Positions 8,815 to 57,617 are shown, counted from the stretch's first letter. The stretch: DNA of 64,000 nucleotides from Gemmatimonadota bacterium (GCA_039589875.1 JBDHGL010000017.1:5875-69874), one strand, 5' to 3'. Notes: a model not told the origin generated them from the sequence alone. Program-made: numbers and translations.

Positions 8815-9125
8815 GCAGTCGATCTCTTGGCTTTGACGAATTTACGAAAGCCCACAAAGCTAGTCGGCCCATCTGCGGCGGTCAACTTCACCTCGTGACC
8901 GAGCCGTTGCGGCGAGCCGCACTCATCTACAGCGGGAACCGTTGCTCGTTCCGCTCCTCGTTACGCGGCCTCCTGGTCGCAGGACCGGGCAAGATTCGGC
9001 ACTTCCGAAGGCTCGAACCCAACGCCTCGGAAATCCCGTATGGAAAAGGAGGGTGGCTTCCCGCGGGCCCAGCCAGGCAGGACGGACCGACCGCTCAATC
9101 GACCGACTGACAGAGAGATGAAACG

Positions 9126-9698
9126 ATGGAGATGTTTTTAGCCCTGATCCTCGGTGTCGGCCTATCCGCCGCCGCGGGGTTTCGCGTGTTCGTTCCTCTG
9201 CTCGGCATGAGCATCGCCGCGCAAAGCGGCCATCTCGAGCTCGCCGCCGGGTTCACCTGGCTGGCCAACCCGATCGTGACGGTCGCCCTCGGTCTGGCCA
9301 CCGTGCTCGAGATCGGAGCCTACTTCATTCCGTGGCTGGACAACGCGCTGGACACCGTCGCCACGCCCGCGGCCGTCGTGGCGGGTACGGTGATGACGGC
9401 CTCTCTGGTTGGTGACATGTCGCCGTTCCTCCGTTGGGGGCTCGCCGCCATCGCAGGTGGCAGCGTCGCCGGAGCGGTGCAGGGGGCCACGGTCGTGGCG
9501 CGGGGAACGTCCTCGCTGACGACCGCCGGCCTCGGCAACCCGCTCCTCGCCCTGACCGAGCTTTCGGCCTCGGCCGCCATTACGGTTCTGGCGATCGCGC
9601 TGCCCCTGGTCGCGCTCGCCCTGGTGGCGGTCGCCCTGCTGGCGATGCCGATGCGAAGACAGCGAAGACGAGCGCTGCCCGCCTATGGCCCTGGCTAG
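9126..9698 (+). CDS. DUF4126-like integral membrane protein
   Basis: 190 aa, 5-6 predicted TM helices, Gly/Ala-rich; RBS-like GAGAGA upstream. Confidence 0.6.
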   Translation: MEMFLALILGVGLSAAAGFRVFVPLLGMSIAAQSGHLELAAGFTWLANPIVTVALGLATVLEIGAYFIPWLDNALDTVATPAAVVAGTVMTASLVGDMSPFLRWGLAAIAGGSVAGAVQGATVVARGTSSLTTAGLGNPLLALTELSASAAITVLAIALPLVALALVAVALLAMPMRRQRRRALPAYGPG

Positions 9699-17772: not shown

Positions 17773-18135
17773 CTAGTCTCCGGCGAACCCGGAGACCTCA
17801 TCCGCTTCGCGGACCAGCTCATCCGGGACGTCCAGCTCCATGCGGAGCAACGCAGCCCCGAACGTCTTGCCCTGCGCGTCCAGCATCAGCGAAACCGTCC
17901 CGCCTCCGCCCAGGGACTCGTGGAGAAGAAAGTTGAGGGCCTTCAGGTTCGGGAGCTCGTATCGATCCACCGGCCCTTTACAGATGCCTGTGAAGTGCTC
18001 CTTTACACGAGCGGCCGTAACTTCTGTCACCAGAATATTATAAATCGGCTCTGTGTAGGCGATCAAACCGACGTTCGCCGTGTCTCCCTTATCTCCGGAG
18101 CGGGCGAAGCCGACCCGCCAGAGAGGGACTCTCAT
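17773..18135 (-). CDS. DUF4387 protein (C-terminal module of AtuA family)
   Basis: 120 aa; 4-nt overlap with upstream DUF1446 gene; typical DUF1446/DUF4387 split pair. Confidence 0.65.
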   Translation of the reverse strand: MRVPLWRVGFARSGDKGDTANVGLIAYTEPIYNILVTEVTAARVKEHFTGICKGPVDRYELPNLKALNFLLHESLGGGGTVSLMLDAQGKTFGAALLRMELDVPDELVREADEVSGFAGD

Positions 18136-38852: not shown

Positions 38853-38876
38853 CCTGCGCGGAACCTCCAGCTTGCG

Positions 38877-38926
38877 TTTCGGTACTTCTTCGGGTACGTT
38901 ATCTTCGGTTTACGTTCGGTATCGGC
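38877..38926 (+). promoter_or_regulatory. tandem repeat array (TTCGG-N(1-3)-TAC x4; TACGTT x2) overlapping a TTGCGT-N17-TACGTT promoter-like element upstream of lexA
   Basis: Repeats read directly from the sequence 40-100 nt upstream of the lexA GTG; candidate LexA operator. Confidence 0.3.
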
Positions 38927-38979
38927 CCACCGGGTCGACGCCGCCAGATCCCGACGGAACCGTAACGGAGGCCCGACCG

Positions 38980-39588
38980 GTGGCCCTCACGAGACGCCAA
39001 AAAGAGATCCTCGACTTCATCGAGAGCTTCCTCGACGCACGCGGCTATTCGCCCAGCTTCGAGGAGATCGCCGAGGGATTCGGCTTTCGATCCCTCGCGA
39101 CCGTGCACGAGCACCTCTCGAACCTCGAGGCGAAGGGATATATCAGGAAGAGCTACAACGAGAGCCGCTCGATAGAGCTCGCTCGGACCGAGTTCAAGCT
39201 CGGAGCGGTCGAACTCCCACTCCTCGGCAGAGTCGCCGCCGGCGAACCGATCGAAGCGATCGAGAATACGGAAGCTCTCGCAGTACCGGAGAGCATGATC
39301 GGCACGGGGGCCGAGCACTACGTGCTCCGCGTGCGCGGCGACTCGATGATTCAAGAGCAGATCCGCGACGGCGACTACGTCGTCGTGCAGTCGCGAGAGT
39401 GGGCCCACAACGGCGAGATGGTGATCGCCCTGGTAGACGGAGAAAGCGCCACGATGAAGAAGTACTATCGTGACGGGAACGGGCGCGTTCGCCTCCAGCC
39501 CGCGAATCCGGAGCTCTCCCCGCTCCTGTACCCTGAGGATCGGGTGCAAGTGCAGGGCATCGTCGTGGGCGTCCTGCGGAAGTACTGA
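38980..39588 (+). CDS. lexA: LexA repressor
   Basis: N-terminal wHTH (LTRRQKEILDFI..) and S24 peptidase domain with Ala-Gly cleavage site and Ser/Lys dyad; GTG start. Confidence 0.9.
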   Translation: MALTRRQKEILDFIESFLDARGYSPSFEEIAEGFGFRSLATVHEHLSNLEAKGYIRKSYNESRSIELARTEFKLGAVELPLLGRVAAGEPIEAIENTEALAVPESMIGTGAEHYVLRVRGDSMIQEQIRDGDYVVVQSREWAHNGEMVIALVDGESATMKKYYRDGNGRVRLQPANPELSPLLYPEDRVQVQGIVVGVLRKY

Positions 39589-41993: not shown

Positions 41994-43427
41994 ATGCCGG
42001 CCGATCGCGCTCGCTACCCACACCCCCTGATCGACCGGTACGCATCGGCCGAGATGGCCGATCTTTTCTCGCCGACCCGAAAGGCGCTTCTCTGGCGGGA
42101 CCTCTGGATCGCTCTCGCCGAGATCGAGCGCGACCTGGGGGTCGACATCCCCGCCTCGGCGATCGCCGAGATGAAAGAGGCGCGAGACGCGCTGGATCTC
42201 GACCGCGTCGCCGAGCTGGAGGCCGAGCTCCGGCACGATGTGATGGCGCACGTGCATCATTTCGGCGAGGTGGCCCCGGCAGCGCGAGGCTACATCCACC
42301 TCGGCGCGACGAGCGCTTTCGTAGGCGACAACGCCTCGCTCGTTCAGCAGCGGGATGGCCTCACGCTTCTTAGGGAGCGGCTGCTCGGCGTCGTGGCTGC
42401 TCTGACCGCCTTCGCCACCGAGTACCGCACGGTTCCGACGCTCGGTTACACGCATCTCCAGGCGGCCCAGCCGACGACGGTCGGCAAGCGCGCCTGCCTG
42501 TGGCTGCAGGATTACCTGTTCGATTTGGAGGAGATCGACGCCGCCCTTGCCTCCCTGCGGCTGCGTGGGGCACGTGGCACGACGGGCACGGAGGCCACCT
42601 TCCTCGAGCTATTGGGCAGCAGCGACCGGGTCGAAGAGCTGAATCGGCAGTTGGCGGAGCGATTCGGCTTCAAGGGCACTTACGGCGTCGTTGGACAGGT
42701 CTACCCGAGAAAAGTGGATCATCGCCTCCTCTCGGTTCTGGCCGGAATCGGAGCCAGCTCATCCCGCTTCGGCCATGACATCCGCCTGCTGCAGGGTCTG
42801 GGAGAGATCGAGGAACCGTTCGGTGACCGGCAGATCGGTTCATCCGCGATGCCCTACAAACGGAACCCGATGCGCTCGGAGCGGATGTGCGCGCTATCGC
42901 GTCACCTGCACGCCCTGCAGCTCGAGTCCGGCTGGACGGCCGCCGTCCAGTGGCTGGAGCGCTCGCTGGACGACTCGGCATCCCGGCGCATCGTGATCCC
43001 CGAGGCGTTTCTCACGGCCGACGCCGTCTTGCTGATCGGCCACAACGTGGCGGGGGGATTGGTGGTGCACCGGGGGACCATCGAACGCCGTCTCCGCCGC
43101 GAGCTTCCGTTTCTGCTCGCCGAGACTCTGCTCATCGCTGGCGTGCGCGGTGGCGGCGATCGGCAGGAGCTGCACGAGCGAATCCGGCAACACGCCATGA
43201 CAGCCCGCGAGCGACTCGAGGCGGGGCAGACCGAGAGCGACTTCCTGGAGCGCGTGGCCAGCGACGAAGCAATCCCGCTCGATCAGGAAGAACTTCGCGA
43301 GCTGGCCGACCCCATCCGGCTCACCGGCCGGGCGGCGGAGCAGGTCGAGGGTTTCCTCGCCGAACGGGTCGAGCCCGTGTTGGCGGGCGCCGAGGCGCCG
43401 CATCAGCCTGCCAGCCTCCGCGTATGA
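41994..43427 (+). CDS. purB: adenylosuccinate lyase
   Basis: 477 aa fumarase/ASL superfamily (GSSAMPYKRNP signature). Confidence 0.95.
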   Translation: MPADRARYPHPLIDRYASAEMADLFSPTRKALLWRDLWIALAEIERDLGVDIPASAIAEMKEARDALDLDRVAELEAELRHDVMAHVHHFGEVAPAARGYIHLGATSAFVGDNASLVQQRDGLTLLRERLLGVVAALTAFATEYRTVPTLGYTHLQAAQPTTVGKRACLWLQDYLFDLEEIDAALASLRLRGARGTTGTEATFLELLGSSDRVEELNRQLAERFGFKGTYGVVGQVYPRKVDHRLLSVLAGIGASSSRFGHDIRLLQGLGEIEEPFGDRQIGSSAMPYKRNPMRSERMCALSRHLHALQLESGWTAAVQWLERSLDDSASRRIVIPEAFLTADAVLLIGHNVAGGLVVHRGTIERRLRRELPFLLAETLLIAGVRGGGDRQELHERIRQHAMTARERLEAGQTESDFLERVASDEAIPLDQEELRELADPIRLTGRAAEQVEGFLAERVEPVLAGAEAPHQPASLRV

Positions 43428-44320
43428 CCACACCGCCGCCCTTCCCGCTTCTGCGCCGCGGCAAGGTCCGAGAGGTGTACGATCTGGGCGAGCAGCTTCT
43501 GCTGGTGGCCTCCGACCGGATCAGCGCTTTCGATTTCGTGCTCCCGCAGGCGATCCCGCGGAAGGGCGAGGTGCTGACCCAGCTGTCGCGGTTCTGGTTC
43601 GAGCGGACGGGGCACCTGGTGCAGAACCACTACCTGGCGGGCGATCCGCAGCGGATGATCGCGCTGCGCCCAGAGCTGGCGGAGTCGCAGGACGTGTGGG
43701 CCGGCCGCGGACTTCTTGTCCACAAGGCCACGCCCTTTCCCGTGGAGTGTATAGTCAGAGGGTATCTGGCCGGGTCGGCCTGGAAAGAATATAGGGAGAG
43801 CGGGAGCCTGGCCGGCGAGAAGCTCGAGGAGGGGCTCCGAGAGAGCGACCGCCTGCCGGGGGTGCTGTTCTCGCCATCGACGAAAGCCGTGGAAGGGCAT
43901 GACGAGAACATCACGTTCGACGAGCTGAAGCGCCGGCTCGGCCAGAAGACCAGCCTGCTGCTACGTGAGCTCAGCCTCGCCCTGTACCGTTTCGGCCGAG
44001 ATCTGGCGGCCCGGCGGGGCATCATCGTGGCCGACACGAAGTTCGAGTTCGGAGTTTCCGACACCGGCGAGGTCCTCCTGATCGACGAGGTTCTCACTCC
44101 CGACTCGTCCCGGTTCTGGCCGGCGGATCGATACGAGCCCGGGCGCGGCCAGGAGTCGTTGGACAAGCAGCCGGTACGTGATTATCTGGAATCATTAAGA
44201 GAGGCCGGAGAGTGGGACGGAGAGGCCCCTCCCCCTGAGCTGTCGGGCGAGATCGTGTCGGCGACGACGGAGCGTTACATGGATGTGTACCGTAGGCTCA
44301 CCGGCCAGGAGCTTTCATGA
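43424..44320 (+). CDS. purC: phosphoribosylaminoimidazole-succinocarboxamide (SAICAR) synthase
   Basis: ATG overlaps purB stop (ATGA); MTTPPPFPLLRRGKVREVYD.. SAICAR synthetase fold. Confidence 0.9.
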   Translation: MTTPPPFPLLRRGKVREVYDLGEQLLLVASDRISAFDFVLPQAIPRKGEVLTQLSRFWFERTGHLVQNHYLAGDPQRMIALRPELAESQDVWAGRGLLVHKATPFPVECIVRGYLAGSAWKEYRESGSLAGEKLEEGLRESDRLPGVLFSPSTKAVEGHDENITFDELKRRLGQKTSLLLRELSLALYRFGRDLAARRGIIVADTKFEFGVSDTGEVLLIDEVLTPDSSRFWPADRYEPGRGQESLDKQPVRDYLESLREAGEWDGEAPPPELSGEIVSATTERYMDVYRRLTGQELS

Positions 44321-44574
44321 ATTACCAGATCGAGATCCGCGTAACCCCGAGGGAGGGGATTGTCGATCCGGAGGGTCACACGATCGGACAGGCGCTCGCG
44401 AACCTCGGCTACGAGGGCGTGCAGGACGTGCAGGCCGGCCGACTCGTGCGGTTCGATCTGGAGGCTCCGGATCGGGAGGGTGCGCATCAGAGCGTCGTTC
44501 GGATGTGCGAGGAGCTCATCGCCAACCCGGTGATCGAGCGCTACGCGATCGAAATCCAGCAAACGGAAGCGTGA
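44317..44574 (+). CDS. purS: FGAM synthase PurS subunit
   Basis: 85 aa; ATGA overlap with purC. Confidence 0.9.
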
Positions 44575-44578
44575 CCCG

Positions 44579-45277
44579 GTGAAGGTCGGCGTCGTTCGTT
44601 TCCCCGGATCCAACTGCGACCAGGACTGCTTCCGGGCGGTCGAGGACGGCATCGGTGCCGAGGCGACCTATCTCTGGCACAAGTCGCACGACCTGCAGGC
44701 GTCGGACGCGATCATTCTCCCCGGCGGCTTCTCGTACGGCGACCACCTGCGAGCCGGCGCGATCGCCCGCTTCAGTCCGATCATGCGGGAGGTGATCGGC
44801 TTCGCCCGGGACGGCGGTCCGGTGCTCGGGATCTGCAACGGCTTTCAGATTCTCTGTGAGGCCGGCCTGCTGCCCGGAGCCCTCATGCGGAACCGCTCCC
44901 TGCGTTTCCGCTCCCACCAGGTGCACCTCCGGGTCGAGCGGACCGACACTCCGTTCACCTGCGCGTACGATGAGGGAGCAGTGCTGGCCATGCCGATCGC
45001 CCACGGAGAGGGGCAGTACGTGGCCGACGGCCCGACGGTGGCAGAGCTGGAAGAGGGAGGCCGCGTGGTATTTCGCTACGTGACTGCACACGGCGAGACA
45101 ACGGAAGAGGCGAACCCGAACGGATCGATACGGAACATTGCCGGAGTGTGTGACGCGGGAAGGAGTGTCGTGGGCCTGATGCCGCATCCCGAACGCGTTG
45201 CGCTGCCCCTCCTCGGATCGGATGGCCTCGGCGTATTCCGGTCGCTGCTGGAGAGCGCGGGAGCGAGCGTGGCTTGA
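44579..45277 (+). CDS. purQ: FGAM synthase glutaminase subunit PurQ
   Basis: Class I amidotransferase Cys/His (GICNGFQ.., HPE); GTG start. Confidence 0.9.
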
Positions 45278-47544
45278 GCGCTCCAGCCACCGAAACGATC
45301 ATCGAGATCACGCCGTCCCTGGTCGAAGACCACGGACTCCTGCCCGAGGAGTACGAGCAGATCGTCGAGATCCTCGGGCGCGAGCCCACCTTCTCCGAGC
45401 TGGGGGTGTTCAGCGCCATGTGGTCGGAGCATTGCGGCTACAAGAACTCGCGGCCGCTTCTGCGCACCCTTCCGACAGAGGGGCCGCAGGTCGTCCAGGG
45501 GCCGGGCGAGAACGCCGGCGTGATCGACGCCGGCGAGGGCTGGGGAGTCGCCTTCAAGATCGAGTCCCACAACCACCCCTCGGCGGTGGAGCCATACCAG
45601 GGCGCGGCCACGGGCGCCGGAGGCATCCTTCGGGACGTCTTCACGATGGGCGCCCGCCCGATCGCCCTCTTCGACAGCCTCCACTTCGGATCCCTGGATT
45701 CACCGAGAGCGCGATACCTTCTGGACGGCGTCGTCCGCGGCGTGGGCGACTACGGAAACTGCGTGGGCGTCCCGACGGTGGGCGGCGAAGCGGTGTTCGA
45801 CGCCGCCTACGAGCGCAACCCGATCATCAACGTGATGTGCGTCGGCCTGCTCCGGCTCGAGGATCTCGTTCGGGGACTAGCGGAAGGCGTGGGCAACGCG
45901 GTGATGGCCGTCGGAGCCCGGACGGGCCGCGATGGGATCCACGGAGCCACCTTCGCCTCGGAGGAGCTGGATGAGGGATCGGACAGCCGGCCGCAGGTTC
46001 AGGTCGGCGATCCGTTCACCGAGAAGCTGCTGCTCGAGGCCAGCCTGGAGCTCATCGAGAAGGATCTGCTGATCGGAATCCAGGACATGGGCGCCGCGGG
46101 CCTGACCTCGAGCGGCTCGGAGATGGCGGCGCGAAGCGGCTCCGGCATCGACATCGATGTCGCACTCGTGCCGACGCGCGAGCCTGGAATGACGCCGTAC
46201 GAGATCCTTCTCTCCGAGTCGCAGGAGCGCATGCTGCTCGTGGCGAAGCCGGGCCTCGAGAGCGAGGTCGAGGACGTTTTGGCCAAGTGGGATCTCGAAG
46301 CAGCAGTGATCGGTCGCGTGACCGACGACCAGGTCTTCCGGGTGCGCGATGGCGGAGAGGTAGTGGTGGAGATCCCCGTGATCCCTCTGGTCGAGGGCTG
46401 TCCGACCTACACCCGTGAAGGGGTGGACGACCCCGAGATCCGCATGCGGCGTGAGGCCGATCTGTCTGCCTACTCGGAACTTCCGTCCGATGGCGAGGCC
46501 GCCGAAGCGCTGCTCGCGCTCCTCGATTCTCCATCGGTGGCATCCCGCCGATGGATCTACGAGCAATACGACACGACCGTGGGCACGAACACGATCGTAG
46601 GTCCCGGCTCCGACGCCGCCGTCCTGCGCCTGGCGGACACGGGGCGCGGAGTCGCTGCCTCGTTGGACGGTAACGGCCGCTATGTCTTCCTGGCGCCGCG
46701 ACGCGGCGCCCAGATCGCGGTGGCCGAGGCGGCGAGGAACGTGGCCTGCAGCGGCGGGCGCCCGGTTGCGATCACCAACTGCCTGAACTTCGGAAACCCA
46801 CTGAAACCGACCGTCTACCATCACTTTACGGAGGCGGTCGAGGGCGTCGGCGAGGCATGTCGGGTCCTCGGCACTCCTGTCACAGGCGGGAACGTCTCCT
46901 TCTATAACGAGACGCCGGACGGAGCCGTCTACCCGACTCCGGTCATCGGCATGCTGGGCCTGCTCGATGATTTGGATCAGGTCGTTCCTTCCCGCTTCCA
47001 GGAGCCGGGAAGCACTGTCCTGCTGATCGGAGAGACGCAGGACGAGCTGGGCGCGAGCGAGTATCTAGCGGTGTGCCATGGGCTCGTCGCCGGACAGCCG
47101 CCCGCGATCGACCTTGATGAGGCGAAGCGGCTCGTGGATTTCCTGGTTAGCGCCGCCTCGCGACGGCTACTTCTCTCGGCGCATGACTGCTCCGATGGCG
47201 GCCTGGCCGTGGCGCTGGCCGAGTGCGTTATTCGGGAGCACCTCCCCGCGCTGGGGGTCGAAGCCGCGCTGGCCTCCGAGATCCCGGCGGCCGCGGCGCT
47301 GTTCGGCGAATCACAGTCGCGCGTCGTACTCAGCTGCGCGGCGGCCGCGGTCGACGACATCCTGGAGCTCGCAAGCCGACACGGTCTACGGGCGGCGGCG
47401 ATCGGAACCGTTGGAGAGCCGGGCGGCACGTTCCGGCTGAGCGCCGGCAGCCGGACGATCGAGGTCGACGCAACCCACCTCGCCGAGGTGTACGAGTCCG
47501 CGCTCCCCCGACGGATGGAGAAGGAAGCCGGCCTGACGACATGA
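45274..47544 (+). CDS. purL: FGAM synthase PurL (small form)
   Basis: 756 aa; TTG start overlapping purQ stop (TTGA); AIR-synthase-related duplicated domains. Confidence 0.95.
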
Positions 47545-47554
47545 TCGAGTCCGA

Positions 47555-48976
47555 ATGAGGCACCTCGAGAGCCCCGGCCCCGACCGGCCGCGCGAAGAAT
47601 GCGGCATCTTTGCCATCAGCGGATCGCCGGCCGCCGCGGAGCTCGCCTTCATGGGCCTCTACGCGCTCCAGCACCGGGGTCAGGAGTCCGCCGGGATCGT
47701 GTCGATCGACGACCTCGGGATCGCGAGGAGCCACCGGGGCATGGGGCTGGTGGCGGATGTGTTCGACGAAGACAACCTGCACCGGTTGGTCGGGACGACG
47801 GCGATCGGGCACGTTCGCTACTCGACCTCGGGCGGCTCTGAGCTGCGGAACGCACAACCGGTGCTCGTCGAGTACCGGCACGGCTCGATGGCCCTCGCGC
47901 ACAACGGCAACATCACGAACGGCCGAGAGCTCCGGCAAAGACTCTCGGAAGAGGGTGCGATCTTCCAGACGGACTCCGACTCGGAGGTCGTCATCCACCT
48001 GATCGCCCGGTCGCGGCGAGAGGACGAGTGCCAGCAGGTCGACGATGCGCTGTCGCAGCTGGTCGGCGCCTTCTCGCTGGTCCTCAGCGTGGGCAAGAGC
48101 GTGTATGCGGCGCGCGATCCCCGCGGATACCGGCCTCTCGTGCTCGGACGCCTCGGCGAGGCCAGCATCGTCTGCTCCGAGACCTGCGCGCTGGACCTGA
48201 TCGGTGCCGAGTACATCCGCGACGTGGAGCCGGGCGAGGTGCTGCGCATCCGGGACGGCCGCATCGAGAACCTCCGTCCGCTCCCGCCGGAATCGCCAGC
48301 ACCCTGCCTGTTCGAGCTCGTCTACTTCGCGCGCCCCGACTCGCAGGTTTGGGGCTGTTCGGTCGACGGTGCGCGGCGGGCCTTCGGCCGGCGGCTGGCG
48401 GTCGAACACCCGGTCGAGGCCGACTGCGTGTTCTCGGTCCCCGATTCGTCCAACTCGGCTGCCCTCGGATACGCTGAGGAATCCGGGATCCCGTTCGAGC
48501 TCGCCCTGATCAGGAACCACTACGTCGGGCGGACGTTCATCTACCCGACGCAGACCGGACGCGACTTCAGGGTCCGGGTCAAATACAATCCGGTCACCGA
48601 GCTGATCTCCGGAAAGCGAACGGTCATCGTGGACGACTCGTTGGTCCGGGGTACGACGAGTAAAGGCCTCGTCGCCCTGCTCCGCGAAGCCGGGGCACGC
48701 GAGATCCACTTCCGCATCGCCTCGCCACCGATCCGCTTCCCCTGCTATTACGGAGTCGACATGCCCACCCGCACGGAGCTCCTCGGCGCCGAGCACTCCG
48801 TCGATGAGATCCGGAAGCATCTCGGCGTCGACTCGCTCGGCTATCTCTCGATGGATGGCATGCAGGCGGCGGTCGAAGAGTTCGGGCCGTTTTGCAACGC
48901 CTGTTGGACGGGAGAGTACGCCGCGCCGTTGATCGACCTGGAGGCCGGTCACGATCTGGCGGGCGTCACGGAGTGA
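47555..48976 (+). CDS. purF: amidophosphoribosyltransferase
   Basis: Propeptide then catalytic Cys (EECGIFAI), PRT motif (VDDSLVRGTT), 4Fe-4S cysteines in C-terminus. Confidence 0.95.
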   Translation: MRHLESPGPDRPREECGIFAISGSPAAAELAFMGLYALQHRGQESAGIVSIDDLGIARSHRGMGLVADVFDEDNLHRLVGTTAIGHVRYSTSGGSELRNAQPVLVEYRHGSMALAHNGNITNGRELRQRLSEEGAIFQTDSDSEVVIHLIARSRREDECQQVDDALSQLVGAFSLVLSVGKSVYAARDPRGYRPLVLGRLGEASIVCSETCALDLIGAEYIRDVEPGEVLRIRDGRIENLRPLPPESPAPCLFELVYFARPDSQVWGCSVDGARRAFGRRLAVEHPVEADCVFSVPDSSNSAALGYAEESGIPFELALIRNHYVGRTFIYPTQTGRDFRVRVKYNPVTELISGKRTVIVDDSLVRGTTSKGLVALLREAGAREIHFRIASPPIRFPCYYGVDMPTRTELLGAEHSVDEIRKHLGVDSLGYLSMDGMQAAVEEFGPFCNACWTGEYAAPLIDLEAGHDLAGVTE

Positions 48977-50619
48977 GCCGAAAGCCCCGTACGCTTCGCG
49001 CCGCTGCGGTCGCGTTGCTCGTCCTCCCGCTCCTCGCGGCCATCGTCTACCGCTTCGCCCCGGCAACCCTCCCTGCGGCCCTCTCGGGCGCGGTCGACCT
49101 TCCCGCGGACTCGGCCTGCGCCGTGATCCTGTCGACCAACGACGAGCATGGCGGGCTGCTCCCATCCAGGTACCCGTGGGCGGGCGATACGCCGGTCGGA
49201 GGCGCCGAGGCGCTCGCCGGCTACGTGCGCACGGTCCGGGAAACTTCCGACTGTCCCGTCTTCCTGGTCAGCGGCGGGGACATGATGCAGGGCACCCTCA
49301 TCTCGAACCTCTCAGCAGGACGTGCCACGATCGAAGTGATGAACGAGATCGGCTACGACGCCGCCGCGATCGGAAACCATGAGTTCGACTGGGGCATCGG
49401 GACCCTCGAAGAGCGACTCGAGCAGTCCCGCTTCCCGGTCCTCGGCGCGAACATCTTCGTGGAGGGAACCAACCGCCATCCGAAGTGGGTGCAGCCGTAC
49501 GCCATTCTGGAGAAGCAGGGCGTCAGGCTCGGCGTGATCGGCGCGGCCACCCGTTCCACCCCGTCTACCACCCACCCCGACAGCGTCGCGGGGCTCGAGT
49601 TCCGCTCCATCGCCGAGGCGCTCGACCGATACATCCCCGAGGTTCGCGCGAAGGGGGCCGACTTCGTCGTCGCCGTGATGCATGCCGGCGGCTTTTGCGA
49701 CCGCCCGTCAGAGGAGCCGGGATCAGGGGCAGCGGCGACACGCTGCGCCGGCGAGGCCATCGACGAGCTGTCGGCGACCAAGGAGGTTTTCGATTACGCC
49801 GCGACCGGACACACGCACAGCCGGGTGGACGACCGGATCCACGGGGCGCCGGTCGTCCAGTCGTACGCGAACCTGGGCGCGATCGGCATCGGCCGCCTGG
49901 TGCGCTACGCCTCCGGCGAGGTGGTCGGTGAGCTGGAGGGCATCTATCCGCTCTTTCCGGACTCGACACCCGCCAGCCCGGCAATCGCCCGTCTCGTGCG
50001 GCACTACGAGGAGGAGGCGACCGCGACCGCCGAGGCCGAGGTTATGACGTTGGCCGAAGCGCTGCCGAAGACGCGGCGGGGCGGCTACGGCCTCGGCCGG
50101 CTCATCGCCGACGCCCAGCGGGAGGCCGCCGACGCAGACGTGGCGATGATGAACAACGGAGGGATCCGAACCCCTCTGCCGGCCGGCCTGATCAGCTACA
50201 GCGACATCTTCCGCGTGCAGCCGTTTCAGACCACGCTCATCCGCCTCCAGCTCAGCGGCTCTCAGCTCCTGTCTGCTTTGGAGCACTCGATCACCGACGC
50301 TGGCCCGCGGGATAATCTGAGTGGACTCACCGTCGAATACGATCCGGAAGCCGTGGCGGGAAACCGGATCCGCTGCGCCCGTCTCGCGGACGGAAGCATC
50401 CTCTCCGCTGAAGCCATCTATATCGTTGCTGTAAATAACTTTATGGCAGCTGGCGGCGATGGTTTCGAGGTCTTCAAGGAGGCCCGGATGGCCCAGCAAA
50501 CGGGCATCGTGGATCTGGATGCGCTCGTCTCCCACCTCCGGCAGCTACCGCAACCGGTCACCGCTCCGCAGGAGCCGCGATGGATCGCGATCCCGGGACT
50601 CTCGCGAGGCTGCTCGTGA
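48973..50619 (+). CDS. secreted bifunctional metallophosphatase/5'-nucleotidase (UshA-like)
   Basis: GTG start overlapping purF stop (GTGA) then signal peptide (LRAAAVALLVLPLLAAIV); calcineurin-like GDxxQG/GNHEF motifs; C-terminal 5'-nucleotidase domain. Confidence 0.8.
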   Translation: MSRKPRTLRAAAVALLVLPLLAAIVYRFAPATLPAALSGAVDLPADSACAVILSTNDEHGGLLPSRYPWAGDTPVGGAEALAGYVRTVRETSDCPVFLVSGGDMMQGTLISNLSAGRATIEVMNEIGYDAAAIGNHEFDWGIGTLEERLEQSRFPVLGANIFVEGTNRHPKWVQPYAILEKQGVRLGVIGAATRSTPSTTHPDSVAGLEFRSIAEALDRYIPEVRAKGADFVVAVMHAGGFCDRPSEEPGSGAAATRCAGEAIDELSATKEVFDYAATGHTHSRVDDRIHGAPVVQSYANLGAIGIGRLVRYASGEVVGELEGIYPLFPDSTPASPAIARLVRHYEEEATATAEAEVMTLAEALPKTRRGGYGLGRLIADAQREAADADVAMMNNGGIRTPLPAGLISYSDIFRVQPFQTTLIRLQLSGSQLLSALEHSITDAGPRDNLSGLTVEYDPEAVAGNRIRCARLADGSILSAEAIYIVAVNNFMAAGGDGFEVFKEARMAQQTGIVDLDALVSHLRQLPQPVTAPQEPRWIAIPGLSRGCS

Positions 50620-50653
50620 TCCCGCTCCATGCGGCGGCGCTCGGCCCAGGGAG

Positions 50654-51988
50654 ATGAACGCAGACGACAAGATCCGTGTATACGTGGACGATGCGCCGCT
50701 GGACATCTGGCCGTGGGCGCTCGTGCGGGATGCTCTGACCTGGCACTCCGGAGAGCTCGGTGCCTCCCAGCCGGAGAACCCCCTGACGGTTTACGACGGG
50801 GCTGGCTATCCCGTCGACCCGAACGGCCAGCTCGTTCAGGGAGCCCGGCTGTACTTGCGCTCCGATCGAGAAGCTGACACAACGGGCGCAAGCCGATCCG
50901 CGAGCAACGCGGGTGCGAAACGAGACAGGAGCGAAGCGGTGAACGATCAGACCGCAGAGCAGGATGCGCGCGAGCGCATCCACGCGATGCCGAAGACCGA
51001 CCTTCATGTTCACCTGGACGGGTCGTTGCGCCCTTCCACGATCCTCGAGCTTGCCGACCAGTACTCCGTCACGCTGCCCGCGAGCGATCCGGAGAGCCTG
51101 GCCGACTACATGCACGTCAAGGACGCGCGCAATCTGGAAGACTATCTGGAGCGCTTCGCGATCACCCTGTCGGTCATGCAGCATTCCGACGCGCTCGAAC
51201 GAATCGCTTACGAGCTCTGCGAAGATGCGGCGGCCGAGAACGTGCGCTACATGGAGATCCGCTACTCCCCGATCCTCATGACCCGAGAAGGTCTGCCGCT
51301 GCCGGAGACCGTCGAGGCCCCGCTCCGCGGGATCCGGAGGGCACGAGAGGAGTTCGGAATCGACTCGTCTCTGATCGTCTGCGGCATCCGCAACATGGAG
51401 CCGGACGTCTCACGCGACCTGGCCGACCTCACGATCGCCTTCAAGAACCGTGGAGTGGTTGCCTTCGACCTGGCCGGAGCCGAGTACAACTACCCGGCCA
51501 AGAAGCACAAGAACGCCTTCTACATGGTTCGGAACGCCAACGTCAGCGCCACCATCCACGCTGGCGAGGCCTACGGCCCCGAGTCCATCCATCAGGCGCT
51601 CCATTACTGCGGCGCGCATCGGATCGGCCACGGCACCCGGCTCTACGAGGATCCCGATCTCATGCAGTTCGTCAACGATCACCGGATCCCGCTCGAGATC
51701 TGCCTCACGAGCAACGTCCAGACGCGGGCGGTCGAGGACTTCCGGAGCCACCCCGTGCGCCTCTACTTCGATCGGGGCCTGGTGGTCAGCTTGCACACCG
51801 ACAACCGGCTGATGAGCGGAACCACCGTGACCGAGGAGCATGTGCGCGCCTGGAAGCACCTCGACTTCACGCTGGACGAGATCGCTGAGCTGGTCCTCAA
51901 CGGCTTCCGCAGCGCCTTTCTCCACGAACCCCAAAGAGAGGCCCTGCTGGCCGAAGTCGAGCCCAAGATCCGCGAACAGGTCGCCTGA
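50654..51988 (+). CDS. add: adenosine deaminase with ~110-aa N-terminal extension
   Basis: Core from ..MPKTDLHVHLDGS.. to SLHTDN and HAGE motifs; in-frame upstream MNADDKIRVYVDDAPLDIWPW.. region with no stop. Confidence 0.8.
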   Translation: MNADDKIRVYVDDAPLDIWPWALVRDALTWHSGELGASQPENPLTVYDGAGYPVDPNGQLVQGARLYLRSDREADTTGASRSASNAGAKRDRSEAVNDQTAEQDARERIHAMPKTDLHVHLDGSLRPSTILELADQYSVTLPASDPESLADYMHVKDARNLEDYLERFAITLSVMQHSDALERIAYELCEDAAAENVRYMEIRYSPILMTREGLPLPETVEAPLRGIRRAREEFGIDSSLIVCGIRNMEPDVSRDLADLTIAFKNRGVVAFDLAGAEYNYPAKKHKNAFYMVRNANVSATIHAGEAYGPESIHQALHYCGAHRIGHGTRLYEDPDLMQFVNDHRIPLEICLTSNVQTRAVEDFRSHPVRLYFDRGLVVSLHTDNRLMSGTTVTEEHVRAWKHLDFTLDEIAELVLNGFRSAFLHEPQREALLAEVEPKIREQVA

Positions 51989-52269
51989 TCACGGGGAGCC
52001 CGCCAAGCCCGTAAGCCGTTGCAAAGGCGGCTGATCCTTACTGACTCCCGCGCCAAGCCAGCTTTTACGCCAACATAGTTGCGCGGGGCCCACGGCGTCG
52101 CGAGTTCGCCGCTCTTGCGCCCCGGCCCAGGATCCTCTCATCGTGCTCGTCCGGCGCTGCCCTGGAGGGGCCCGATTCCGCTCCACCGCAGCGTCGAGGC
52201 TGTCTTGCCTGCCCGGCACGGAGGTCTCGCAGGCGAGGCTACGCCGTCGACACAGTTAGGGAGGTAGCC

Positions 52270-53571
52270 ATGCGACGACAAAGTCTCGCCCTGTTGCCCC
52301 TGTTCGCCGTCCTGGCGCTGGGGTGCGGAGACTCACCGACGACACCACCGGGCATCGATGCGACTCGGGGCGGCGTCCCCGCGAAGGCGGGCCCGCGGAA
52401 GGTCGTGAAGTTTGCGACTTTCAACGCATCGCTGAACCGGAACTTCCCCGATCAGCTCATGTCCGACATGGCAAGTGGAACGGACACGCAAGCGCAGGCC
52501 GTCGCCGAGATCATTCAGCGCACGCGGCCCGACGTCCTGCTCGTCAACGAGTTCGACTTCGACGCCGGCGGCGTGTCGATGCAGGGCTTCCAGGACAACT
52601 ACCTGTCCGTTCCTCAAAACTTCTCGGGACAAGGGCCGACGCAGCCGATCGTCTACCCCTTCCGCTACTCGGCGCCATCGAACACCGGCATACACTCGGG
52701 CTTCGACCTGGACCGGAGCGGAACCGTGGTAGACAATCCGGGACCGTTCCGCTTCGACCATGCGGGTGACGCGTTCGGCTTCGGGACGTTCGAGGGGCAA
52801 TTCGGGATGGCCGTCTACTCCATGTACCCGATCGACGTGGCGACGATAAGAACGTTTCAGCTCTTCGTATGGGCCGATATGCCCGGCGCGAACCTCCCCG
52901 TCGATCCCGGCACGGGTATGTCCTTTTATACGGACGAGGAACTCGAGGTCTTTCGGCTGTCCTCGAAGAGTCACTGGGATCTCCCGATTCAGATCGGAAA
53001 CAAGGTCGTCCACTTCCTCGTCAGCCATCCGACACCTCCGGTGTTCGACGGACCCGAGGACCGGAACGGGACCCGGAATAACGACGAGATCCGTTTCTGG
53101 GCAGACTACGTGATTCCCTCGCGGTCCGGATACATATACGATGACAACGGGATGTACGGCGGCCTGACGGGCGAGCTGTTCGTGATCGCCGGGGACCAGA
53201 ACGCAGACCCGTTCGACGGCGACAGCTTCCCGGGTGCGGCTCAACAGCTTCTCGACCACCCCTTGATCAACACCAAGGCAACGCCGGCCAGCGCCGGTGG
53301 CGTCGAGATGGCCGGACAGGGACCGCCGAACGACACCCACGTGGGCGACCCGGCGTTCGACACGGCCGACTTCAGCGAGGCCGCGTTCGGAGGCCCCGGC
53401 AACCTCCGCGCCGACTACGTGCTCCCGAGAAGGGAGCTCTCCATTCGAGACTCAGGGATCTTCTGGCCGACGTCGAGTGATCCGTTGTTCCCGCTCACCG
53501 GACCGGGATTCCCGGCGGTCAGCTCGGACCACCGGCTCGTGTGGATCGATGTCCAGGTCCCCGGAAGCTAA
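52270..53571 (+). CDS. endonuclease/exonuclease/phosphatase (EEP)-family lipoprotein, secreted
   Basis: Lipobox LALGC after signal; EEP-fold conserved Asn/Glu/Asp/His blocks; GGAGG RBS. Confidence 0.75.
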   Translation: MRRQSLALLPLFAVLALGCGDSPTTPPGIDATRGGVPAKAGPRKVVKFATFNASLNRNFPDQLMSDMASGTDTQAQAVAEIIQRTRPDVLLVNEFDFDAGGVSMQGFQDNYLSVPQNFSGQGPTQPIVYPFRYSAPSNTGIHSGFDLDRSGTVVDNPGPFRFDHAGDAFGFGTFEGQFGMAVYSMYPIDVATIRTFQLFVWADMPGANLPVDPGTGMSFYTDEELEVFRLSSKSHWDLPIQIGNKVVHFLVSHPTPPVFDGPEDRNGTRNNDEIRFWADYVIPSRSGYIYDDNGMYGGLTGELFVIAGDQNADPFDGDSFPGAAQQLLDHPLINTKATPASAGGVEMAGQGPPNDTHVGDPAFDTADFSEAAFGGPGNLRADYVLPRRELSIRDSGIFWPTSSDPLFPLTGPGFPAVSSDHRLVWIDVQVPGS

Positions 53572-53610
53572 GCGAAACGGGCGCTAGCCAGCCCGAATAG
53601 CGAAATACCA

Positions 53611-53650
53611 AAAAGAGGGCCCCCTTAGCCGGGGGCCCTCTGTCATTTAT
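53611..53650 (+). terminator. intrinsic terminator after EEP gene
   Basis: AGAGGGCCCCC-ttagcc-GGGGGCCCTCT hairpin followed by T-rich tract. Confidence 0.5.
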
Positions 53651-53654
53651 GCCT

Positions 53655-53682
53655 TTACGCGTGCGTTACATCCATGTAACAT
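53655..53682 (+). promoter_or_regulatory. TTTACG-N16-TAACAT promoter-like element overlapped by perfect palindrome GTTACAT-CC-ATGTAAC (53665-53680)
   Basis: Only AT-rich island in the window; ~145 nt upstream of the TonB-dependent receptor ATG. Confidence 0.35.
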
Positions 53683-53825
53683 ACGGTTGAGTCTGTTCAT
53701 ACACTTCTCCGCCACTTTGGAGAGGACGCGGTGCGCTATCCGCCCCGGCTATTTGGCTCGCCTCGCAGAGATCCTCACTCGCTGCAGGACTACACACATC
53801 CAACCCCCCCACTCGTGAGGTCCCC

Positions 53826-56800
53826 ATGAGTACACGATTTGTTAGAGCGACTCTGTCCCTAGCACTGGTCGCGATCGCGGCGCTCGTAACGACGGGTACG
53901 GCCTGGTCGCAGGTCGTGACGTCGGAGATTCGCGGCACCGTAACGGGTCAGGACGGCAACGCGATCGACGGTGTGCAGGTGATCGTCACCGACACCCGGA
54001 CGAACGCCACGTTCGGGACGCTCACGAACGCGAGCGGCCGGTACGCCGTGCTGCACCTCCAGCCCGGCGGGCCGTACACCGTGCAGGCGCAGAGCATCGG
54101 CTATCGGTCGGAAATCAAGCAGGGCGTCTCGGTCGTGCTCAGCCAGGCCGCCACGGTCAACTTCCAGCTACAGGTCTCGGCCGTCGAGGTCGAACCCCTC
54201 ACTGTTGGAGTGGACGCAGGCGAGGCCTCCGTGTTCAGCGCCGAGCACACAGGTCAGGCGACCCAGATCTCAGAGAAGGAGATCGAGACCTTCCCGACGC
54301 GATCGCGGAACATTCTGGAGCTGACGCTCCTCTCGCCGTACGTGAACCAGTTCGAGGACGCCCCGACGATCGCCGGGAAACCGAACCGGTACAACAACTT
54401 CCTGGTCGACGGAGCCGTCACCAACGACTTCTTCGGGGTCGGCGAGGGCGGAGCTCCCGGCAGCGACACCAACGCCAAGCCGATCTCCCTCTTGGCGGTG
54501 GAGCAGATGCAGATCCTGGTGGCACCGTTCGACGTCCGGCAGTCCAACTTCACCGGCGGCGTCATCAACGTCGTCACCAAGTCGGGCACGAACGAGTGGA
54601 CAACCAACTTCTTCGCGAGCTACTCCAGCGATGCCCTGACCGGAAGTATCGGTGAAGACCTAGCCGGCGATTTCAACGACACGCAGGTCGGCCTCAGCTT
54701 CGGCGGCCCAATCGCCAAGGACAAGGTGTTCTTCTTCGCGGCGGGCGAGTATCAGTCCGAGAACCGGCCGTTCGACAACCGGCTCATTGAGGAGGGAGGC
54801 GATCCCGCCGAGGCGGCCGAGATCGCGGCGATCCTCGAGAACACGTACGGCGTGAACGCCGGTAGCCCCGGAGCCGCGTCGCTCCCCAACCCGCGCACCA
54901 ACATCTTCGTCCGGTTCGATTTCAACCTGGGCCAGAAGAACCGGATCGTGCTGCGCGACAACTACATCAAGGGTACGGCCCAGACGGCGTGCAGTCGCGG
55001 CTTCTTCGGCTACTGCTTCACGTCCGGCCTCGGGCCGTTCACGACCGACTACAACTCGATCGTGGCAGAATGGTTCTCGCAAGTCGGCACCAACTGGAAC
55101 AACGAGCTGCTCATCAACTACTCGAGGACCCAGGAGAGCCGGAACTGCGACGAGACATACCAAGAGCTCACGGTCGGGAGCTCCGGCCCCGACTACCTCT
55201 TCGGTTGTTCGCGGTTCTCCCAGCGGAACGCGCAGGACCACAAGCTCTTCCAGCTCACGGACAACCTGACGGCGACCATGGGCGCCCACCGCCTCACGTT
55301 CGGAACGTCGAACGAGTTCTACAGCTTCTTCAACGTCTTCCAGGAGTCCGCCATCGGGCTGTACGAGTTCGCCGATGCGGACGCCCTCGCCGCCAATACC
55401 CCGTCCGAATACACGAAGCGCGTGCCCGCACCGGGAATCCCGACCCTCGACGATGCCGCCTCGGAATTCAACGCGATTCAGCTCGGCTTCTACGTCCAGG
55501 ACCAGTGGACAGCAAGTGACAAGCTCACATTCAACTTCGGGATCCGGGCCGACATCCCGATCCTCCCGGACAGCCCGCGCTTCAACCCGGAGGCAATGGA
55601 AATCCTGAACGTCAACACGTCGGAAGTCGCCTCGGGGAACGTGATCTTGCAGCCGCGTTTCGGCTTCAACTGGAACAACCAGGCAGATATGCCGACGCAG
55701 TTCCGGGGAGGCATCGGGATCTTCGCCGGTCGCAATCCGTACGTGTGGATCTCCAACTCCTACCAGAACACGGGTAAGGAGTCGAACATCCTCTCCTGTG
55801 GCGCGCTCAACTCGCCCGGGTTCGACCCGGACGAACGGCCCACGACCTGCACCGACGGGACCGGGGCCGGATCGGCGCTGCAAAGCACCTGGTACATGGA
55901 CCCGGACTTCAAATTCCCGACCGACCTCAAGATCAGCGGCGGGATCGACCAGGCGCTGCCTGGCGGAATCGCCGCGACGTTCGAGATCCTGTACACAAAG
56001 TCCATCAACGACGCGTTCTTCGAGGAACAGAACATTCGCTCGCAACAGGGAACGGACGAGACCCAGGGGAACCGCCCGGTCTACGGCACGCCCGTCGACT
56101 TCGACCCGGTGATCGGCCGCAGCTGCGGCGACAACGGAGGCTGTTTCACGGACTTCCGTATCGACGAGCGGTTCCGGCAGGTCGTGGAGCTGACGAACCA
56201 AAATCAGAACAAGTCCCTGATCCTCACCTTCCAGCTGCAGCGTCAGTTCATGGACTGGCTGGGGTTCAACACCTCCTACACGTTCGCGAACGTGGACGAC
56301 GTCCAGGTCCAGCAGTCGAGCCAGGCCACCTCCAACTTCGGCCGGAACTCGATCGATGCCGACCCCAACGATCCGGATCTGGTCTCGGGCTTTAACGAGC
56401 GGCCTCACAAGGTGGTGTTGGCCGCCACCGGTAGCTGGACATTCGGCGGCGGCTGGCTGTTCGAGGTGACGCCCCAGTACTTCGGGCAGTCGGGCCTACC
56501 GTACAGCCTCACCACCGAGGGTGACATCAACGGCGACGGCTATGCCTCGCCCGAGATCGGCCGGGACAATGACGGCCTCTACATTCCGAACAACTCGGAC
56601 GAGCTCGTCTGGAAGACGCCCGAGGATCAGATGCTATTCGATGAGCTGATCGCATCGAACGAGTGCCTCTCGTCGCAGAGGGGCAGCATCATGAAGCGAA
56701 GCAGCTGCCGCTATGACTGGAACAACCGGCTCTCCATGCAGTTCAGGTTCGGGATCCCGACCGGCTCCAGAGGCCGAATCGACTTCGTCGCGGACGTCAT

Positions 56801-57041
56801 CAACCTGTTCGGCTGGGAGTGGCGTGAGGGGGCCGCCGACCGCGGAGTCATCGTAACGGAAGTCGACGGAGGACGCTGCCCGAACCCCAGCCGCGCCGAC
56901 TGCGGGCCCGGCGACGATGGCGCCTTCATCTTCGACTACATCGGCCCGGAGGCGGACAGCGAAGGCAGGATCGATCCTGCTGGACCCCTGAGCCCCGAGT
57001 CGCGCACGCGCTGGCAGATCGGCATCCAGTTCGCCTTTTAA
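53826..57041 (+). CDS. TonB-dependent outer-membrane receptor with N-terminal carboxypeptidase-regulatory-like domain
   Basis: 1071 aa; signal peptide, CarboxypepD_reg-like beta-sandwich, plug, 22-strand barrel, C-terminal ..IGIQFAF. Confidence 0.9.
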   Translation: MSTRFVRATLSLALVAIAALVTTGTAWSQVVTSEIRGTVTGQDGNAIDGVQVIVTDTRTNATFGTLTNASGRYAVLHLQPGGPYTVQAQSIGYRSEIKQGVSVVLSQAATVNFQLQVSAVEVEPLTVGVDAGEASVFSAEHTGQATQISEKEIETFPTRSRNILELTLLSPYVNQFEDAPTIAGKPNRYNNFLVDGAVTNDFFGVGEGGAPGSDTNAKPISLLAVEQMQILVAPFDVRQSNFTGGVINVVTKSGTNEWTTNFFASYSSDALTGSIGEDLAGDFNDTQVGLSFGGPIAKDKVFFFAAGEYQSENRPFDNRLIEEGGDPAEAAEIAAILENTYGVNAGSPGAASLPNPRTNIFVRFDFNLGQKNRIVLRDNYIKGTAQTACSRGFFGYCFTSGLGPFTTDYNSIVAEWFSQVGTNWNNELLINYSRTQESRNCDETYQELTVGSSGPDYLFGCSRFSQRNAQDHKLFQLTDNLTATMGAHRLTFGTSNEFYSFFNVFQESAIGLYEFADADALAANTPSEYTKRVPAPGIPTLDDAASEFNAIQLGFYVQDQWTASDKLTFNFGIRADIPILPDSPRFNPEAMEILNVNTSEVASGNVILQPRFGFNWNNQADMPTQFRGGIGIFAGRNPYVWISNSYQNTGKESNILSCGALNSPGFDPDERPTTCTDGTGAGSALQSTWYMDPDFKFPTDLKISGGIDQALPGGIAATFEILYTKSINDAFFEEQNIRSQQGTDETQGNRPVYGTPVDFDPVIGRSCGDNGGCFTDFRIDERFRQVVELTNQNQNKSLILTFQLQRQFMDWLGFNTSYTFANVDDVQVQQSSQATSNFGRNSIDADPNDPDLVSGFNERPHKVVLAATGSWTFGGGWLFEVTPQYFGQSGLPYSLTTEGDINGDGYASPEIGRDNDGLYIPNNSDELVWKTPEDQMLFDELIASNECLSSQRGSIMKRSSCRYDWNNRLSMQFRFGIPTGSRGRIDFVADVINLFGWEWREGAADRGVIVTEVDGGRCPNPSRADCGPGDDGAFIFDYIGPEADSEGRIDPAGPLSPESRTRWQIGIQFAF

Positions 57042-57105: not shown

Positions 57106-57142
57106 CGGCCCCCGTTCCGCTCACGCGGAACGGGGGCTTTCC
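57106..57142. terminator. bidirectional intrinsic terminator between TBDR (+) and lipoprotein gene (-)
   Basis: 13-bp perfect stem GCCCCCGTTCCGC/GCGGAACGGGGGC, loop tcac, flanked by A-tract 5' and TTT 3'. Confidence 0.5.
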
Positions 57143-57164: not shown

Positions 57165-57350
57165 TCAGCCGCCCTCGAGCGGGCGCCGTCCCTGAAGACA
57201 TCTCGACAGGTCCTCGTTGTTGTCGTGGCTGAAGATGCCGCTCAGCTGGTCGGGGTCGCATTCCAACTGACCGGCTCCCGTAATGCCGCCCGCGCTGCAG
57301 GCGGACAGAAGAAGCGCCAGCATCGGCAGCAACATCCAGCGTTGAGCCAT
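57165..57350 (-). CDS. hypothetical small lipoprotein (61 aa)
   Basis: Internal ATG gives MAQRWMLLPMLALLLSAC.. signal with lipobox; otherwise unassigned. Confidence 0.35.
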   Translation of the reverse strand: MAQRWMLLPMLALLLSACSAGGITGAGQLECDPDQLSGIFSHDNNEDLSRCLQGRRPLEGG

Positions 57351-57486
57351 TCTCACGCTATCGCCCCGTACGAGGACCGCGCTCGCGAGTAAACTCCGAG
57401 ATTCCGAAGCGAGCATCGGACGCCATCCGTCGATTGGAGATGTGGGGACTCGATCGCCCGAATTGAGTTAATGGAGGTGCCTTGAG

Positions 57487-57601
57487 CCGGGCGAACGTAT
57501 CCTCGACGAGCGAATTAGCGCGACGGCACCGAGACCCCGCAGCGTAGCGAGGAGGCTCGGGGCCCAAAGCGCGCCAGCGAGGCGAGGATACGTTCGTCCG
57601 G
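57487..57601 (-). repeat. long imperfect inverted repeat (19-nt arms, 1 mismatch) enclosing an inner GC hairpin; structured RNA element or terminator downstream of fbp
   Basis: CCGGGCGAACGTATCCTCG ... CGAGGATACGTTCGTCCGG read directly; inner CCCCG/CGGGG stem. Confidence 0.4.
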
Positions 57602-57617
57602 CTCCTAACTGTACGTC

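Follow-up and report, generated by a model that had tools for sequence, protein, structure and literature searches.

A probable core promoter and an overlapping candidate operator upstream of a TonB-dependent-receptor-like gene in Gemmatimonadota

The window, meaning the whole stretch of 64,000 nucleotides analysed here, belongs to the Gemmatimonadota, bacteria that are frequent in soils and sediments and seldom cultured, and whose promoters and regulators are little known. Its G+C content is 65.9%, lower than the ~68% background stated in an initial annotation. On the plus strand, an operon made up of purB-C-S-Q-L-F is continued by genes for a 5'-nucleotidase, an adenosine deaminase and an Exo_endo_phos (EEP) nuclease/phosphatase, the last of which stops at 53571; purB, purC, purS and purQ were assigned by reading their translations, and purL and purF from Pfam matches. 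It is followed at 53826..57041, also on the plus strand, by a gene for a TonB-dependent-receptor-like outer-membrane protein of 1071 aa, which combines a CarboxypepD_reg domain with an OMP_b-brl_4 barrel. The Pfam matches of this receptor are PF25183 (E=1e-33) and PF13620 (E=5e-19), with PF00593 reaching 23.5 bits, under its cut-off of 27. A perfect hairpin with 13-bp arms (57108-57137) closes the receptor gene.

Beyond this hairpin, the gene of a small conserved lipoprotein (61-66 aa) runs convergently towards the receptor gene (57165-57350 on the minus strand of the window; 9347-9547, also minus, in the related locus L086). Its product, which matches nothing in NCBIfam, carries a lipobox (LLSAC or LLAC), and its C-terminal end, GIFSHDNNEDLSRCLQGRRPL.GG, is conserved. 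Between the start of this gene and the stop of a fructose-1,6-bisphosphatase gene lies an inverted repeat (57484-57505 / 57583-57604) whose 22-nt arms are 95% complementary and 77 nt apart, and which has no Rfam match.

Orthologous loci were collected from Gemmatimonadota genome and metagenome assemblies in three ways: by scanning one genome per species, by scanning metagenomes, and by taking the contigs of proteins found in a homology search. The receptor orthologues come from Gemmatimonadota MAGs, as do the loci closest to the window; one contig, from a JGI metagenome (L084), has the same sequence as the window itself. The resulting set holds 11 distinct orthologous upstream regions, whose receptors are 69-84% identical to that of the window. 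We divided them by promoter sequence into five clades: A (the window and L085), B (L001, L003, L004, L089 and L096), C (L093 and L095), D (L086-L088) and E (L002 and L090-L092). A further four orthologues (L005, L097, L098 and L099) are more distant, at ~50% identity.

As a measure of background divergence, four-fold degenerate sites of the adjacent gene are 0.54-0.76 identical between the window and the other loci, and 0.53-0.91 identical over all pairs. Over the intergenic region as a whole, ~28% of columns are invariant. The gene tree and the promoter tree conflict: the receptors of L086 and L004 are 92% identical, with a four-fold identity of 0.91, and their promoters are strongly divergent and fall into different clades. 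This mismatch points to recombination, with a breakpoint apparently near the gene start, and because the two trees disagree, recombination could inflate the apparent conservation at this locus.

The upstream operon, from purB to the EEP gene, ends in a predicted intrinsic terminator at 53614..53641 (+), with an 11-bp GC-rich stem, a 6-nt loop and a T-rich tail continuing into the -35 region described below. Nine of the 11 stem pairs are G-C, the predicted energy is -26.4 kcal/mol (z -4.65), and none of 200 shuffled sequences is as stable. The tail, GTCATTTATG, has 5 T in the 8 bases from TCATTTAT, 1 base past the stem. A hairpin occupies this position in most orthologous loci (the 5' arm is lost in L095 and L096, and the terminator is absent in L002), and its 3' arm has a between-clade identity of 0.82. 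The T/A-rich tract between terminator and -35 element (GTCATTTATGC, 53642..53652, +) is T-rich in all clades, with its sequence only 0.52 conserved; it would act as the terminator tail, and possibly also as an UP-like element. Since so strong a terminator stands immediately upstream, the receptor gene needs a promoter of its own.

The initial annotation had drawn attention to this intergenic region as the only AT-rich island of the window. The 80-nt stretch at 53639-53718 indeed has the lowest G+C content of all (44%), but it is not alone, as other stretches come close (45% at 17978-18057, 46% at 8779-8858 and 47% at 50398-50477). Both hexamers of the promoter proposed there are present, TTTACG at 53654-53659 and TAACAT at 53677-53682; their spacing had been miscounted as 16 bp, and the actual spacer is 17 bp long.

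Comparison of the 11 upstream regions bears the promoter reading out: each of them, in whichever of the five clades, has CTTTAC, a spacer of 17 bp and TAnnAT. The -35 element, CTTTACG (53653..53659, +), has a between-clade identity of 0.94, and its hexamer TTTACG agrees with TTGACA at 4/6 positions. The spacer (53660..53676, +) consists of five variable nucleotides, the hexamer GTTACA (53665-53670), a variable TCCA centre and the dinucleotide TG. In the -10 element, TAACAT (53677..53682, +; between-clade identity 0.87), T1, A2, A5 and T6 are invariant, and the variants TAGCAT and TAAAAT occur. T-12, A-11 and T-7 are the best-conserved positions of known promoters, and all three forms of the element retain them. 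The hexamers are thus under constraint, for four-fold sites of the adjacent gene are only 0.54-0.76 identical between the window and the other loci; likewise, all 30 nt from -35 to -10 are identical between the window and L085, yet 32% of their four-fold sites differ. Because the -35 element, spacer and -10 element are conserved in all 11 orthologous upstream regions, we consider the AT-rich patch to be very probably the receptor gene's own core promoter, of the housekeeping type.

The site thus described resembles a sigma-70-type promoter in its -35-like hexamer, its 17-bp spacer and its TAnnAT -10 element, but neither hexamer is strong, the two together matching 8 of 12 consensus positions, and a sigma-70 consensus scan of 52000-55000, with a threshold of 9, accordingly called no promoter-like site at all. 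Nor is it an extended -10 promoter of the usual form, in which TG lies one base upstream of the -10 element, as TG here abuts the element directly. A second promoter using GTTACA as its -35 element was considered and rejected: the hexamers 16-17 bp downstream (TTGAGT, TAGGTG, TTGGAT, GTGAGG and CTCGGT) do not have the TAnnnT form. Our literature searches, which were aimed at LexA motifs and operators, met with no description of a Gemmatimonadota promoter.

Within this promoter lies the palindrome GTTACAT-CC-ATGTAAC, found at 53665-53680 exactly as first reported. Its 7-nt arms are exact, but the description as a 16-bp perfect inverted repeat holds for the arms only, the 16-mer being 7+2+7 with a non-symmetric CC centre. 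The palindrome, with the core GTTACA-N4-TGTAAC, is unique in the window and identical in L085, and in these two sequences the dyad extends imperfectly to 53660-53685. It joins the conserved spacer hexamer GTTACA and the dinucleotide TG to the start of the -10 element, and so overlaps the -10 that the initial annotation had it straddle: the left arm lies within the spacer, and the right arm covers -10 positions 1-4. The centres of the two half-sites are 10 bp apart, which is the spacing of a helical turn.

The palindrome by itself is not beyond chance, because 71 perfect 7+7 inverted repeats with a spacer of 0-6 nt occur in the window, compared with 61±10 expected from Markov simulations; with A/T-rich arms there are five, compared with 2.7±1.8 simulated. 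Its weight is in its position and its partial conservation. The core is complete (12/12) in clade A. It retains 11/12 positions in clade B (GTTACAT CC GTGTAGC), 10-11/12 in clade C (G(G/T)TACAA CC ATGTAAA) and 11/12 in clade D (GTGACAG TC TTGTAAC). In clade E (GTGACGA AA GCATAAC) only 8/12 remain, the promoter being retained and the dyad degraded. The palindrome is perfect in two of the 11 sequences, those of the window's lineage and L085. The more distant orthologues L005, L097, L098 and L099, which still lie beside adenosine deaminase, have no dyad upstream, and their upstream regions are unrelated to the window's promoter. Three of them carry promoter-like pairs of their own, likewise free of a dyad: TTGATG-N17-TAAAAT in L097, TTTCAA-N17-TAGGTT in L098 and TTGTTG-N17-TAGGAT in L005. 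Conservation upstream of orthologous receptors, one of the two points on which the initial annotation would have its proposal judged, is thus partial: the core persists at 10-12 of 12 positions in four clades, is degraded in clade E and is absent from the distant orthologues.

The profile of identity along the promoter speaks for an operator. Between clades, identity falls from the -35 element to 0.55 in the first five spacer bases, rises to 0.80 in the left arm, drops to 0.33 at the dyad centre, and recovers through TG (0.60) to the -10 element; the mean for the leader is 0.55. The peaks are thus at the -35 element, the left arm and the -10 element, and the troughs at the start of the spacer and the dyad centre. 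Two half-sites with a free centre are what a dimeric DNA-binding protein would be expected to give. RNA polymerase is not known to read the part of the spacer in which the left arm lies, yet the left-arm block ranks 29th of 188 six-column intergenic blocks and is one of about eight discrete conserved islands of the intergenic region. Against an operator, the conservation of the right arm is largely accounted for by the -10 element.

A first alternative is that the promoter is all there is, and that the palindrome has no binding protein: its right arm would be the -10 element with the preceding TG, and its left arm would match by chance and owe its conservation to common descent, to recombination or to some influence on the strength of the promoter. 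The chance frequency of such palindromes agrees with this, as does the imperfect symmetry in nine of the 11 sequences, with loss in clade E and the distant orthologues. The invariant columns of the spacer (4/17) are also close to the intergenic proportion given above, and recombination is evident at the locus. What the alternative explains poorly is that the left arm forms a discrete island between flanks of much lower identity, and that its distance from the right arm is exactly one helical turn. Moreover, the eight dyad positions outside the -10 element (GTTACA plus TG) show 0, 0, 0-1 and 1 changes in clades A-D, which is fewer than the four-fold sites predict. We regard a promoter with an incidental palindrome as possible, though on the doubtful side.

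Searches for recurrence gave the operator reading no help. No second site of the motif turned up in the 64 kb of the window, nor, outside the orthologous positions, in 0.94 Mb of loci from relatives. With up to three mismatches allowed, the sole other match to the palindrome in the window is 44274-44289 (GTTACATGGATGTGTA, 3 mismatches), which lies within the purC coding sequence (ERYMDVY) and was treated as chance; a degenerate core pattern, with up to two mismatches, matches the palindrome alone in the window. Over the 0.94 Mb, the exact core is confined to L084, which is the window's sequence, and L085. A repeated or mobile element was rejected as an explanation, there being no further copies: a DNA profile of promoter and leader matched orthologous sites only over the same 0.94 Mb.

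No transcription-factor gene was found within about 15 kb of the receptor gene or in its conserved neighbourhood. Together with the lack of recurrence, this favours the promoter-only alternative. The sole regulator found in the 64-kb window is lexA (~38977-39588), 15 kb away. LexA was rejected as the regulator, as the region upstream of its own gene has direct repeats of the form TTCGG(N0-2)TAC, with no dyad. These four repeats, at 38878, 38889, 38904 and 38915 within 38870-38925 (spacings 11, 15 and 11), fall in the promoter region of lexA and are candidate LexA boxes for this lineage. They are unlike the Bacteroidetes LexA motifs GGA-N5-TCC and CTAA-N5-TTAG (PMC8565304), and the published literature that we searched yielded no LexA motif for Gemmatimonadota.

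Known binding sites were compared by means of their consensus sequences. No match beating shuffled sequences was obtained for Fur, PurR, the E. coli Pho box, three LexA types, PadR, CRP, Zur, FadR, HutC or LacI-type sites, and the half-site GTTACA itself resembles the Fur, PurR, LexA, CRP, PadR, FadR, HutC and LacI-type consensus no better than shuffled sequence does. PadR-type sites (ATGT-N8-ACAT) have similar half-sites in the opposite arrangement. A literature search for GTTACA/TGTAAC operators turned up PadR, KstR, GalR, Rex and HypR, none of them with a matching arrangement.

The same bases can also be read as direct repeats, because GTTAC and GTAAC are nearly self-complementary. TTTACG begins at 53654, GTTACA at 53665 and GTAACA at 53676, an 11-bp phasing that lies within the 10-11 bp of OmpR/PhoB-type response-regulator sites, and would make the array a site for a phosphate- or nutrient-responsive regulator. 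The three hexamers are conserved and the two 5-nt gaps largely variable, with the exception of 53664, the last base of the first gap, which is invariant. Both strands match the pattern KTWACR-N5-KTWACR here with 0-1 mismatch, and one other site in the window matches it as well; there are five matches in the window compared with 0.62 expected, four of the five being at the palindrome and none in the lexA upstream region. The Bacillus PhoP-type repeat fits with two mismatches, a marginal result that 19 of 300 shuffles reach. A phosphate regulator would suit the neighbouring 5'-nucleotidase and nuclease/phosphatase genes; in other bacteria, enzymes for nucleotide and eDNA scavenging are reported to be part of phosphate-starvation responses (PMC4714964).

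Several points speak against direct repeats. Apart from GTTACA, the repeats are simply the -35 and -10 elements, and the E. coli Pho box has 7/18 mismatches, which 199 of 300 shuffles equal. OmpR/PhoB-type activator sites lie upstream of the -10 element, in place of the -35 element, and the array here is contrary to this in running over the -10. There is no response-regulator gene nearby. A response-regulator site of this type seems to us very unlikely.

The most likely reading is that the dyad GTTACA-N4-TGTAAC, with its half-sites 10 bp apart, is the putative operator of a dimeric helix-turn-helix repressor. Situated immediately behind the upstream operon's terminator, the predicted promoter would drive a receptor mRNA with a leader of ~137 nt, and the putative repressor would sit on the spacer and the -10 element and so block RNA polymerase. 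In its layout the site is like the promoter-overlapping operators that act by steric occlusion (TetR/tetO, LexA boxes and the E. coli PurR boxes): it is a 16-bp dyad with half-sites of 6-7 bp, it lies between -35 and -10 and reaches into the -10 element of a transporter gene, and its half-sites are conserved around a variable centre. It is unlike them in that no cognate regulator was found in the conserved neighbourhood and no second site in the sequence searched. The proposal of a repressor operator, made in the initial annotation, accordingly fares unevenly, the overlap with the promoter and the partial conservation of the dyad standing for it, and the lack of recurrence and of a nearby regulator against it; the whole is only suggestive. 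We consider it plausible, at about even odds, that the palindrome is a repressor operator, and give the combination of promoter plus operator even odds as well.

TonB-dependent receptor genes are usually controlled by Fur boxes, by ECF sigma/anti-sigma pairs or by cobalamin or TPP riboswitches. The present gene belongs to the same broad class and likewise has a long leader, but none of these controls is apparent. The Fur box has 10/19 mismatches here, no riboswitch was detected in the window's leader by Rfam, and no ECF sigma gene adjoins the receptor gene, whose product has the CarboxypepD_reg N-terminal domain and no detected signalling extension. An ECF sigma gene does adjoin a 55%-identical relative of the receptor in L094 (687-7707), which directly follows genes for an ECF sigma factor and a large Ser/Thr kinase-TPR protein. 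This relative is probably a paralogue at a different locus, and its regulatory context differs from that of the window's receptor gene.

The predicted 5' leader extends over 53689..53825 (+), its start being placed from the geometry of the -10 element. If transcription begins near 53689, the leader to the ATG at 53826 is ~137 nt long, which agrees with the ~140 nt first proposed, subject to that predicted start. A small hairpin, CUUCUCCG / UGGAGAGG, lies at 53704..53725 (+; -10.2 kcal/mol, z -3.4). Its core is CTCC...GGAG in clades A, B, C and E and CTCA...TGAG in clade D, a double compensatory change, and the GGAG of its 3' arm resembles a ribosome-binding site for an upstream GTG at 53731. 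The E. coli ompA mRNA, which encodes an abundant outer-membrane protein, also has a long 5' leader with a stem-loop at its 5' end. The predicted leader here is similar in exceeding 130 nt and in having a stem-loop near the 5' end, but differs in that the hairpin is ~15 nt from the predicted 5' end and not at it.

The translation-initiation region (53811..53831, +) includes the Shine-Dalgarno sequence GAGG (53817-53820), the ATG at 53826 and a possible 7-bp hairpin, ACUCGUG/CAUGAGU, that would enclose the start codon. GTGAGG, CCCC (53822-53825) and the ATG are invariant in the 11 sequences, and 53821 is T except in clade D, where it is C. The hairpin is weak (-7.4 kcal/mol, z -1.5), and clades D and E disrupt its pairing.

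An upstream start codon is present at the position aligned to 53731 in all 11 sequences, as GTG in the window and ATG in relatives, 4-7 nt after GGAG or TGAG, and in three clades the frame begins MRYPP.... In seven of the 11 this frame joins the receptor ATG in frame and free of stops, and would add 30-31 aa. Of the other four, the window, L001 and L002 carry a frameshift and L085 a stop codon; the window's version of the frame ends at a TGA that shares ATGA with the receptor ATG. A leader peptide or N-terminal extension from the upstream ATG/GTG was rejected, as the frame is shifted or stopped in four of the 11. In the window, a tandem 5-nt duplication (CTCGC CTCGC, 53757-53766), specific to this sequence, shifts the upstream frame relative to the other clades.

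These features raise the alternative that the long conserved leader houses an RNA element, whether a riboswitch, an attenuator or a leader-peptide device, and that the palindrome is incidental. The conserved islands of the leader, its small hairpin, the invariant region at the ribosome-binding site and ATG, and the conserved upstream start codon with its spacing from GGAG or TGAG would all fit. However, RNAalifold on the 11 leaders found no covariation (term +0.7), with one of 17 pairs compensatory; the leader folds no better than its shuffles (z -0.59); the upstream frame is not conserved; and the palindrome, being upstream of the predicted start, would not be part of the transcript. Rfam gave nothing at the gathering threshold in the whole window, and only chance-level matches in 53500-53900 when searched to E=10. 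A riboswitch was rejected on the grounds of Rfam, covariation and leader stability, and an RNA element of any of these kinds appears extremely unlikely.

What the locus offers is a promoter supported by comparison of lineages, CTTTAC-N18-TAnnAT, together with a testable candidate operator. A promoter overlapped by a palindrome is a textbook layout that would not surprise a specialist, and the gene context is the more useful lead. In the window's orthologue group, the receptor gene lies in or after a block of purB-C-S-Q-L-F, 5'-nucleotidase and adenosine deaminase, to which three of the five clades add the EEP gene. L002, L090-L092, L093, L095 and L096 lack this last gene, and in L099, one of the more distant orthologues, it is divergently oriented. 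Adenosine deaminase is linked to the receptor gene in both orthologue groups, which are ~50% identical to each other (41994-57041 in the window; L084-L093 and L097-L099). This conserved linkage with genes for purine synthesis, for 5'-nucleotidase and adenosine deaminase, and for a nuclease/phosphatase suggests that the receptor serves in the uptake or scavenging of nucleic-acid breakdown products.

From the same gene context, purines, nucleosides or phosphate would be the obvious candidates for the signal sensed by the putative repressor. Taken to its most specific form, the dyad would be the operator of an undescribed Gemmatimonadota repressor responding to purine, nucleoside or phosphate, and controlling a receptor for nucleosides, nucleotides or DNA fragments; stated in such detail, the proposal is unlikely to hold in full. 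We know of no TonB-dependent transporter for nucleic-acid breakdown products with a regulator of this kind.

Elsewhere in the window, a gene at 8239-8814 on the minus strand joins a ribosomal protein L21 domain to a C-terminal E3_binding tail (PF02817, E=6e-12), an unusual combination.
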